DNA from: a virus
Lineage: Duplodnaviria > Caudoviricetes
DNA: 64,000 nucleotides
Strand: one strand, 5' to 3'
IMG/VR virus record: IMGVR_UViG_2634166338_000002
The notes beneath the pieces are model-generated. The model saw only the letters and a list, made by a program, of their open reading frames with translations, was not told the origin of the DNA and did no database searches. The position numbers and the translations under genes were made by a program. Below are positions 25,642-27,578 of this stretch, piece after piece. Numbering within the stretch: the stretch's first letter is position 1; the number at the start of each line of letters is the position of its first letter.

Positions 25642-25970
25642 CCGGGACGTCCTCGAGGAGACGAAGCCGGTCAGAGGGTAAGCCGGTCGAGTAGGTCACG
25701 CAGAGCCCTCAACCGGCGCTGCGTTTGTGGTTCCGGCGGACGGGTGAGGCTTAGCGGCCCGATCTCGTGGATGACCGCACGGAACAGGACTTCCCGGTCT
25801 TCGTCGGTGTGAATCAGGCAGCCCCAGGAGGCCCGGCCCCGTTCACTGGCCAGGGTGGCGCGCAGTTCGCGTAGATGATCGGCGGGCTTACCGCTGGACC
25901 GCGCGATCTCGTGGTCAACAGCCTCAACCAGCGCGGCGCGATCGTCGTCGTCGTCACGCAGCAGACCGGA

Positions 25971-27473
25971 TGTGACTTTCGGCGATAGTTAGCACCCGGC
26001 CGCAGCCCACACGCTGGTCAGTGCCGTGGCGTTCGGCGATGGTTGGCACCGATTTCCGGTTTTAGTTGGCACCGGTACGGCTTTTCGGCGGTAGCTGGCA
26101 CTGGCTTGCTCCGACCGGCGCCGGATGTCCGTCACCCTCGGTAGCACGATGTTGGTCGGGTCTTCGGGGAGCGAGCGCTATCTGCGGCATGAGAGCGCAC
26201 CAAGGGGCAAAGAGCAATGGCTTGCGTACGACTCTGTCGGTTGCGTTCCTGACGGATTTTTAGCTTACCGTCCGTCGTCCTTGCTTGCTCGCAAGCTTTC
26301 ATATCGGTCAATAAGGCAATCGGCGCACTGGCCGCTCGCGTGTTTATTGGTTTGAAAATGTTGGCGCTCCTTTTGGGTGTGCACGTTGCAAACGTCTTCA
26401 CATATGACGCACTGAGTTGGCAGCCTAGCCATCATCCTTGATCCTCTCACGTCGGCGAGACCCTGGTGGCTTACGCACAATCTGCAGGGGTTGGCCGATA
26501 GAATTCAAAGCTAATTCTATCGAATGACCTCATGCAAAATGTTGACCGCGGCATTAATCGTTGACCCGATTTTCGTGTCGTCCATTTGAATATGGATTCC
26601 TTGTGCTGCAGGTGACCGAGAAAAGAGTGAACCACTGAAAACTGTAAGCGGCTGACCGTAACCCTCACCCGTGTGCCAATTCTGTGCAAGTCGCGCCTCC
26701 GTCCAGCAGCGTCCAGATCCAGCCGGAGCAGGCTGGGCTAGTAGCGGCGTCCATACGGCGAGGACCGGGCGTACCTCATGTTTTGAAAAATCTGCGGGCA
26801 GCGAGCCTCTGTCTAGATTTCCGAGGACCTTTGCGGCGGCTTTCCAAGCCAAAAACGTATGGCGCTCTATATCAAATTTCCATTCGTCCAGCCCTTGATG
26901 CCAGGACGCCCAGGCGTAGTCTTCGATCGGCCCATTTTTTGGTACCGCCTTTCCCTGGTAACTGGAAGCGGTCCAAAATTTGTATTCAACCGAAAGAAGC
27001 TCTTGGATGCCGGACTTGTCCGCTACAACGATTGCATCGTCCAGAACCGCCCTGTTCCCATTTACCTCAACCCTAGGGCGACATTTATTGAGCCGGGTCA
27101 CACTCACGAATCTCTGCTGTAGGTGAGCGACCAGTAGTGCCCTGAGGATATCTTCGCCTGCCGCCTTACTCACAAGACCGACGGACGCCGTGCGCCTTCT
27201 TACCCGCTCGTCGAAATTCTTTACCAATGCTTGGATTTGAAGCTCCGGCATGTCGTTCCTCTGGCTCGGCAATATGCTCCGGAATTCTAGTTCACGTCGA
27301 CCGTAGGTGGGTCCGTATGCACGCATTCTCATCGGCAAATCCCTGCTTAGGCAACCTCGCGGGCCCGTGACGGAGGGTAGCCAAGAGGCTCGTGGTTGCG
27401 GCTTCCACTGGCGCCGCATCGGCGACCGGTGTCAACAAGCCCTGAAAAGTGCCAACTAGGACCGAAAGTCACA
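25971..27473. mobile_element. Non-autonomous Tn7/Tn5053-like mini-transposon
   Basis: Inverted ends TGTGACTTTCGG-N4-AGTT(A/G)GCAC; internal repeats at 26032, 26053, 26082 and 27429; 5-bp TSD CCGGA at 25966-25970 and 27474-27478. Confidence 0.9.
26517..27251 (-). CDS. Putative PD-(D/E)XK nuclease (transposon cargo)
   Basis: GED...LDDAIV...SVEYKFW catalytic pattern; lower GC than the flanks; AGGA RBS before ATG at 27251. Confidence 0.6.
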   Translation of the reverse strand: MPELQIQALVKNFDERVRRRTASVGLVSKAAGEDILRALLVAHLQQRFVSVTRLNKCRPRVEVNGNRAVLDDAIVVADKSGIQELLSVEYKFWTASSYQGKAVPKNGPIEDYAWASWHQGLDEWKFDIERHTFLAWKAAAKVLGNLDRGSLPADFSKHEVRPVLAVWTPLLAQPAPAGSGRCWTEARLAQNWHTGEGYGQPLTVFSGSLFSRSPAAQGIHIQMDDTKIGSTINAAVNILHEVIR

Positions 27474-27578
27474 CCGGACCAGGCGATCCGGCCTTTCGGT
27501 GCGACGGTCATACCGTCGAATGGCACATGCGTTCGATCATGCGGTGTGGGGGTGTGGCGGGTCTGGCTGCTGTCTTGC

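Follow-up and report, generated by a model that had tools for sequence, protein, structure and literature searches.

The window, by which we mean the whole stretch of 64,000 nucleotides analysed, includes the late region of a prophage, and a 1503-bp insertion (element 1, 25971-27473) lies there between the terminase and portal genes. A sequence-only reading had described an element of this size with inverted ends, four internal sites at one end and two at the other, and an exact 5-bp duplication (CCGGA) around it, and our re-analysis of the sequence bore this out. The exact positions then given for the sites did not hold, being a few bases off, and the copies are imperfect. The features of the locus are the following.

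23440-25641, plus strand: prophage terminase small and large subunit genes (context).
25671-27511, minus strand: ORF of 110 codons, restored in silico by removing element 1 and one copy of the duplication; its ATG lies 10 bp below the SOS box.
25966-25970, plus strand: target-site duplication copy 1 (CCGGA, 5 bp), exact direct copy flanking element 1.
25971-26102, plus strand: four-site end of element 1, with a TGT terminus and TnsB-type sites at 25976, 26030, 26053 and 26082.
26105-26190, plus strand: inner extension on the four-site side, conserved in the transposase-less (mini) lineage only (nhmmer).
26517-27251, minus strand: cargo ORF, putative PD-(D/E)XK-fold endonuclease of 244 amino acids, with a ribosome-binding site.
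27325-27425, minus strand: inner extension on the two-site side, conserved in the mini lineage.
27428-27473, minus strand: two-site end of element 1, with two abutting sites, facing the SOS box.
27474-27478, plus strand: target-site duplication copy 2 (CCGGA, 5 bp), exact direct copy flanking element 1.
27521-27536, no strand assigned: LexA/SOS box TGGCAC-N4-GTTCGA, the inferred target, with 2 mismatches to the palindrome.
27579-27716, plus strand: two-site end and inner extension of element 2, of the same lineage as element 1.
27862-28494, minus strand: CHAT-like gene of low GC content, the probable cargo of element 2 (its match to Pfam CHAT, with E 0.0046, is below the cut-off).
28734-29168, plus strand: C-terminal part of a phage N6/N4 DNA methyltransferase, abutting the cargo of element 2.
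30400-31920, plus strand: prophage portal gene (context).

A GDSL/SGNH hydrolase gene (29131-30360), unusual for a packaging module, also lies between terminase and portal. A promoter search found no sigma-70-type promoter.

The termini of element 1 are inverted repeats of 25 bp, 84% complementary, that start with TGTGAC. Inside them, a 19-bp site motif has seven matches in the window (with up to two mismatches) against 0.07 expected by chance, and the largest count in 100 shuffles was one. The four spaced sites, whose starts come from a matrix scan, are arranged with near-identical spacing in the autonomous relative L149, while the inner site of the two-site end is degenerate. In autonomous relatives the four-site end adjoins tnsA and the two-site end adjoins tniQ. 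As regards the inner extensions, the nhmmer model of 26105-26190 also matches L052, L068 and L122, none of which had been used in the model. A conserved RNA structure was sought in the extension at 27325-27425 and none was seen; a structured RNA was ruled out by a consensus energy of -2.7 and no covariation.

Two features were absent from the earlier finding: the LexA box at 27521-27536 and the second two-site end at 27579. The latter is the start of element 2, whose sites were placed at 27584 and 27604 by matrix scan. The box lies 47 bp outside the two-site end of element 1 and 42 bp from element 2, and both elements present this end to the shared box from opposite sides, as can be understood from the palindromic nature of the target. 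Since the box is palindromic and the insertion falls outside it, the box survives and is reusable, and this would explain two elements only 105 bp apart. Insertions so close to each other are unexpected given the target immunity of Tn7 (PMC11406308); they could be events separate in time or reflect weak immunity. The four-site end of element 2 and the second copy of its duplication were sought in the window and not found, and a candidate remnant of that end near 28600-28750 was rejected, with a score within those of shuffles and an nhmmer E of 0.13. A deletion that cut the methyltransferase probably also removed the far end of element 2.

Element 1 is inserted near codon 12 of the 110-codon ORF. 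Because its ATG lies 10 bp below the SOS box, this ORF is probably a LexA-controlled gene of the prophage. Searches of 300 family genomes, viral contigs, PHROGs and the Atlas yielded no homologue of the 99-aa fragment of the interrupted ORF. The empty allele of the window site, which the sequence-only reading had proposed to look for, did not appear in the 300 family genomes or the viral contigs. Three low-depth DNA sequencing runs of one sample gave no joints. The assembly that contains the window (G000) has three full lexA paralogues and one gene with a LexA-type N-terminal domain only (C1:7673017, 2327463, 4788982 and 9020303); the domain-only gene is located 23 kb before the window and is possibly the repressor of the prophage.

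The cargo gene of element 1 has a GC content of 54%, against 69% in the genome, and no model of Pfam, NCBIfam, PHROG or PADLOC (PADLOC 2.0) fits its product. In a profile search, residues E33, D71, E89 and K91 were invariant in 36 homologues. A low-confidence structure model (pLDDT 46) gave the restriction-endonuclease-like fold in nearly all its top matches, but with Z of at most 6.4 and rmsd of 3.5-4.6 over 96-118 residues, and an Atlas search returned unnamed clusters together with the MunI cluster at 0.89. The product has the E...D...ExK arrangement of PD-(D/E)XK restriction-like endonucleases (PaqCI, NucS and BstEII folds; MunI cluster) and would have their core fold as well, and it differs from them in that no family model matches; it represents an unnamed family of about 220-260 aa. 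The putative fold and the invariant residues support the PD-(D/E)XK-like cargo of the earlier reading: the product is likely a nuclease, probably a restriction-like endonuclease. Three close homologues (51-68%) occur in actinomycete or metagenomic DNA without element ends. One of them shares a defence-like island with genes for Mrr-helicase and GmrSD-HNH, and another has a TIR/SEFIR gene nearby; a role of the putative nuclease in anti-phage defence is plausible, and we regard it as an even call. A homologue in Paractinoplanes lichenicola (L059:10001-10730) is apparently frameshifted after about 160 codons. Given that the cargo gene follows the boxed promoter at about 260 nt and in the same orientation, with no terminator found on that strand, SOS-induced read-through into the cargo may occur, a suggestion from the layout of the locus to which we give rather little credence.

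Exact matches to the ends are present in Paractinoplanes, Actinoplanes and Micromonospora, and from these names the host would seem to belong to the Micromonosporaceae; G409, of the same genus as G000, and the Paractinoplanes locus are one record. The end pattern was found in 18 of 300 family genomes (up to two mismatches; one control match) and also in metagenomes. All 13 elements in which both ends could be paired, of 0.8-7.8 kb, have exact 5-bp duplications abutting the TGT/ACA termini, and so does L209. As the earlier reading anticipated, the ends serve as bait: they retrieve a family with varied cargo, which may be a HamB/PDC-M23B-like helicase pair, unknown genes or none; inside one unpaired end (L004) there is an NB-ARC gene. 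The helicase pair (mini-element L038:7282-11696, G290) consists of a 310-aa gene and a 1165-aa helicase matching PDC-M23B and HamB, and resembles a Hachiman-like defence pair. Neither element ends nor TniQ were found in viral contigs.

Autonomous elements exist in this family. L040 and L149 have both ends and are complete; L043 is divided between two contigs. Each encodes TnsA, a TnsB of the rve/Mu type with D-D-E motifs, a TnsC of the AAA type and TniQ, in the order tnsA-tnsB-tnsC-tniQ. A DDE parent sharing the same ends, foreseen in the sequence-only reading, does exist. The TnsA proteins of L043, L148 and L149, as well as that of L040, score above the cut-off of NF033179, the model of the actinobacterial TnsA_like_Actin clade (Benler 2021, PMC8649781). 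By tblastn with 13 Tns proteins, no tnsA, tnsB, tnsC or tniQ match was found in G000 (100% complete, one contig, from which plasmids are perhaps missing), and element 1 therefore needs a helper in trans, as had been claimed. TniB-family matches in G000 were discarded as helpers, being unrelated long ATPases. TnsB was likewise not found in three of five other mini-element genomes. Element 1 belongs to a sub-lineage with conserved arms of about 100 bp inside both ends; no tns genes were found in its paired members, and no autonomous element carrying its inner extensions was found.

The earlier reading had assigned the element to a Tn7/Tn5053 type, and of this the Tn7-like part stands. A derivative of the Tn5053/Tn402 family, which hunts res sites, would also have TGT ends of 25 bp and sites laid out asymmetrically in a similar way, and 14 of the 25 bases match the IRt of Tn402; however, this is not above the chance matches in the same 20 kb (15 of 25). 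Identity between the TniA of Tn402 (of R751) and the parent TnsB is only about 24%, a TnsA is encoded by the parent, and no TniR-like resolvase was found in the elements, their flanks or the window. In no flank is there a resolvase gene; LexA boxes lie there instead. Membership in Tn5053/Tn402 is thus refuted, and such a descent is highly improbable. Element 1 derives from an actinobacterial cut-and-paste transposon of the Tn7-like type and is not autonomous.

Some other traces of the family deserve mention. An orphan, decayed four-site end with the same spacing and without a TGT terminus is located 5 Mb from the window (G000:C1:2744780-2744907). In L130 (1449/1454), L109 (8169/8176) and L131/L120, ends stand back to back with 4-7 bp between them, like tandem arrays or circle junctions. 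The closest DNA relative of the two-site end in the window (82%) belongs to an 843-bp element without clear cargo (L041:9530-10372, G272). It seems to have entered a kinase-like gene, where no SOS box is present, and was perhaps moved by a helper with another TniQ.

The most interesting property of these elements, which the earlier reading missed, is their fixed-distance link to LexA boxes. Alignment of the flanks revealed a palindrome, TCGAAC-N4-GTTCGA, at a short fixed distance beyond many two-site ends. We scored it with a fixed consensus, up to two mismatches and a window of 39-48 bp outside the end, the window having been chosen after seeing the data. In the discovery set, the box was present at 18 of 43 two-site ends and at 0 of 29 four-site ends (Fisher p 1.6e-5, an optimistic value because the window was picked post hoc and some junctions share a host locus), against a genome background of 0.001 per end. 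Only one further box was seen in the 150-bp flanks, at 132 bp. Altogether, 27 two-site junctions have a box at 40-47 bp, with a mode of 42, a total that takes in L049 (three mismatches) and L128; the 47 bp of element 1 is the extreme of this range. Insertions occur on either side of the palindrome. The remaining 25 of the 43 ends have no box at the strict cut-off and belong mostly to other TniQ types; L041, a close member of the mini lineage, is also without one. In G319 (L097:12844 and 13657), two two-site ends in the same orientation are separated by about 800 bp and have separate SOS boxes, 41 and 43 bp away; they represent nested or serial insertions.

The link was also evaluated predictively, and we give these results greater weight than the counts of the discovery set. 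Intact relatives of a box-linked TniQ remnant (L095) were fetched before their flanks were inspected. The elements of the two closest, P0005 (54%, Micromonospora chersina; L148) and P0006 (48%; L149), both end 42 bp from a box, one of which is perfect, and P0007 (37% to the remnant) has no box. L160, whose TniQ has the C-terminal region of P0005/L148, is inserted at a different site with a box at 43 bp. Two further TniQ homologues of 34-35% gave a box at 45 bp (L157) and neither end nor box (L159), and among 16 family loci retrieved with the L095 remnant one has a box (L138, 40 bp). A search of 170 genomes of the order with the end-plus-box pattern gave two new matches in another family, at 42 and 41 bp, and no control matches; their boxes agree at 12 of 12 and 11 of 12 bases, though only eight had been specified, and one of them is a complete 682-bp mini-element with its duplication.

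Other two-site ends lie beside other sequences. Four of them (L045:11982+, L048:11905+, L055:7960- and L170:1500-) adjoin a shared coding-like motif that reads GHVGxxYQ in one frame and has no Pfam match; it would be a second target, distinct from the box. A third group (L040:6581, L044:12640, L112, L114 and L126) adjoins an A-tract and GC hairpin that resembles a terminator read backwards; L040 is autonomous and has a different TniQ. tRNA genes were rejected as targets, since they were found at only 2 of 29 loci and far from the ends.

With respect to the identity of the motif, it matches the LexA site that ChIP-seq and SPR have established in Streptomyces venezuelae (PMC9380542) and has the actinobacterial LexA box form, a 16-bp tCGAAC-N4-GNNCGa palindrome at DNA-repair promoters. 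A matrix built from the targets only retrieves the recA, lexA (three boxes), dinB and ruvC promoters among the 34 top sites of G000, where strong matches number 22-58 depending on the cut-off. The insertions of L138, L157 and L049 lie upstream of imuA', and those of L091, L121 and L128 upstream of a small conserved gene; its orthologue in G000 has no element beside a perfect box, which makes this an empty site for the family. No consensus emerges from the spacers between box and end, and no two duplications are alike; the box is therefore host DNA, and from the sequence the target is predicted to be a host LexA operator.

If the box were instead part of a larger terminal module of the element, one could point to relatives with internal LexA-like boxes upstream of tnsA (L130, L109). 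Nevertheless, the TGT/ACA termini are directly bordered by the duplications in all 13 paired elements, the spacers of different sites are unrelated, the boxes are those of host genes, one being present in G000 without any element, and the single box of the window serves two elements. This explanation is largely refuted, and we give it almost no weight. The internal boxes are found just upstream of the elements' own tnsA (L130:1582, L109:8025), and transposase expression may be SOS-controlled in members of this type.

A different possibility is that there is no specific targeting, insertion being random or into open promoters and the cases at SOS promoters being kept by selection, for instance for cargo under SOS control. 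The orientation of the nuclease gene of element 1 relative to the boxed promoter would fit this, and insertions upstream of genes are harmless and would survive. Selection, however, would fix neither the polarity of the ends (18 of 43 versus 0 of 29) nor the 40-47 bp window; most insertions lie upstream of the regulated gene and outside the transcript (L091, L121, L128, L138, L148, L157, L049), and the pattern tracks the TniQ type. We therefore consider selection without targeting an improbable explanation.

In comparisons between autonomous elements, the target follows TniQ and not the TnsB/TnsC core. L149 shares 75% of TnsB and 83% of TnsC with L043 and only 36% of TniQ. L040 is a close sibling of L043 (TnsC 93%, TniQ 80%), and the only locatable ends of this sibling group, in L040 and in the far end of L043 (L044), lie beside the A-tract and GC hairpin and have no box. 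L149 and L148, with TnsB 63%, TnsC 65% and TniQ 49% identical, are both at boxes. A tree was made of all 27 TniQ rows having 180 or more aligned residues, rooted at the midpoint for display only. It groups L148, L149 and L095 in a 99/99 clade, to which L157/L158 is weakly joined, and places L138 elsewhere; L133 (G138) enters as one box-negative row on which no claim depends. Box linkage takes two changes on this tree, and a single box-linked clade has a p-AU of 0.27, which fails to reject it. Taking all this together, steering of a Tn7-like mini-derivative to LexA operators by TniQ is, on the sequence evidence, very probably the correct explanation.

Following the biology of Tn7, a helper would have supplied TnsABC and TniQ in trans, and a TnsD-like TniQ selector recognising host LexA operators would have steered element 1 to its present site. 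TniQ would mark the box, TnsC would assemble alongside, and TnsAB would insert one footprint away. The AlphaFold model of P0006 (pLDDT 69) has a TniQ core (Z 8.9, rmsd 4.8, 253 residues aligned to the TniQ of Tn7016) and two C-terminal helical domains weakly like the HTH of MarR/LysR and of DnaA-IV (Z 4-6). No likeness of TniQ to the LexA HTH was detectable by sequence, and Foldseek with TniQ gave no significant match. By analogy, we slightly favour that TniQ reads the DNA of the box itself through these C-terminal domains; direct readout is our first choice because TnsD targets in cyanobacterial elements lie 40-50 bp from the end (PMC11837452).

The other version of the mechanism, which would yield the same pattern and which we rate as a less probable but serious alternative, is recognition of the operator-bound LexA dimer by TniQ, or by TniQ with TnsC; in that case insertion would depend on LexA and drop during SOS induction. 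Both half-sites are symmetrically conserved with LexA-like tolerance and nothing is conserved outside the box, only full, strong boxes are used, and the spacing is spread over 8 bp. There is also a precedent, Tn5053 being described as sensing resolvase-occupied res sites (Minakhina 1999, as cited in PMC11406308). On the other hand, symmetry is a property of natural boxes in any case and does not distinguish the two versions, the TniQ scaffold can be aligned from end to end with siblings beside unrelated sequences, and TniQ has predicted HTH-like domains.

Steering by TniQ to LexA operators can be placed among known systems. Tn7 and the TnsD-guided Tn7-like transposons have att sites at glmS, tRNA genes and parE (PMC11406308, PMC10293859). 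With them the present family shares the TnsA-TnsB-TnsC-TniQ core (in the relatives), TGT ends, asymmetric arrays of TnsB sites, the 5-bp duplication and an oriented insertion at a fixed offset from the recognised sequence, here 40-47 bp and from the two-site end only. Unlike their single conserved gene, the target here is the operator of a host repressor, scattered over each genome in tens of copies and usable from both sides. In the cyanobacterial Tn7-like elements that target CRISPR repeats, TnsD also came to aim at a non-coding motif in many copies, situated 40-50 bp from the left end (PMC11837452); these elements carry no cargo and belong to another phylum, whereas here the motif is a LexA operator and a transposase-less lineage carries cargo. 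The Tn5053/Tn402 res-site hunters share a single TniQ, a target that is another protein's binding site and a similar end layout, but they aim at res sites of transposons and plasmids, and in our case the site is that of a host regulator, TnsA is present and there is no resolvase. Cargo-bearing Tn7-like elements are known, defence-like cargo is common among them (PMC8649781), and further TnsD targets continue to be described (PMC10293859, PMC11837452). The Actinobacteria-dominated clade has been called experimentally uncharacterised, with no mention of SOS or of non-autonomous forms (PMC8649781). We found no earlier report of a LexA-operator landing rule, or of any transposon targeting a LexA box, in the searchable literature, subscription journals not being covered.

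Known Tn7 selectors mostly aim at a conserved gene, the replication fork, a guide-RNA match, CRISPR repeats or res sites. The intact four-gene systems L149 and L148, together with the near-isogenic control with another TniQ (L040/L043), make the proposed targeting directly testable, and it would offer a tool for site-selective integration in Micromonosporaceae, with the ends as bait for new cargo genes. A wider proposal, which we put forward tentatively and rate a little under an even chance, is that a Tn7-like lineage co-opted the SOS regulon as distributed attachment sites; TniQ would compete with LexA or dock on it, DNA damage would gate the targets, and the transposase-less lineage with its arms of about 100 bp would bring defence-like genes to promoters under SOS control, among them promoters of prophages and islands. 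If operator targeting is true, a selector for the operator of a global repressor would give these transposons many safe sites conserved across actinomycetes, on chromosomes as well as on mobile elements, and it could couple their transposition to DNA damage.
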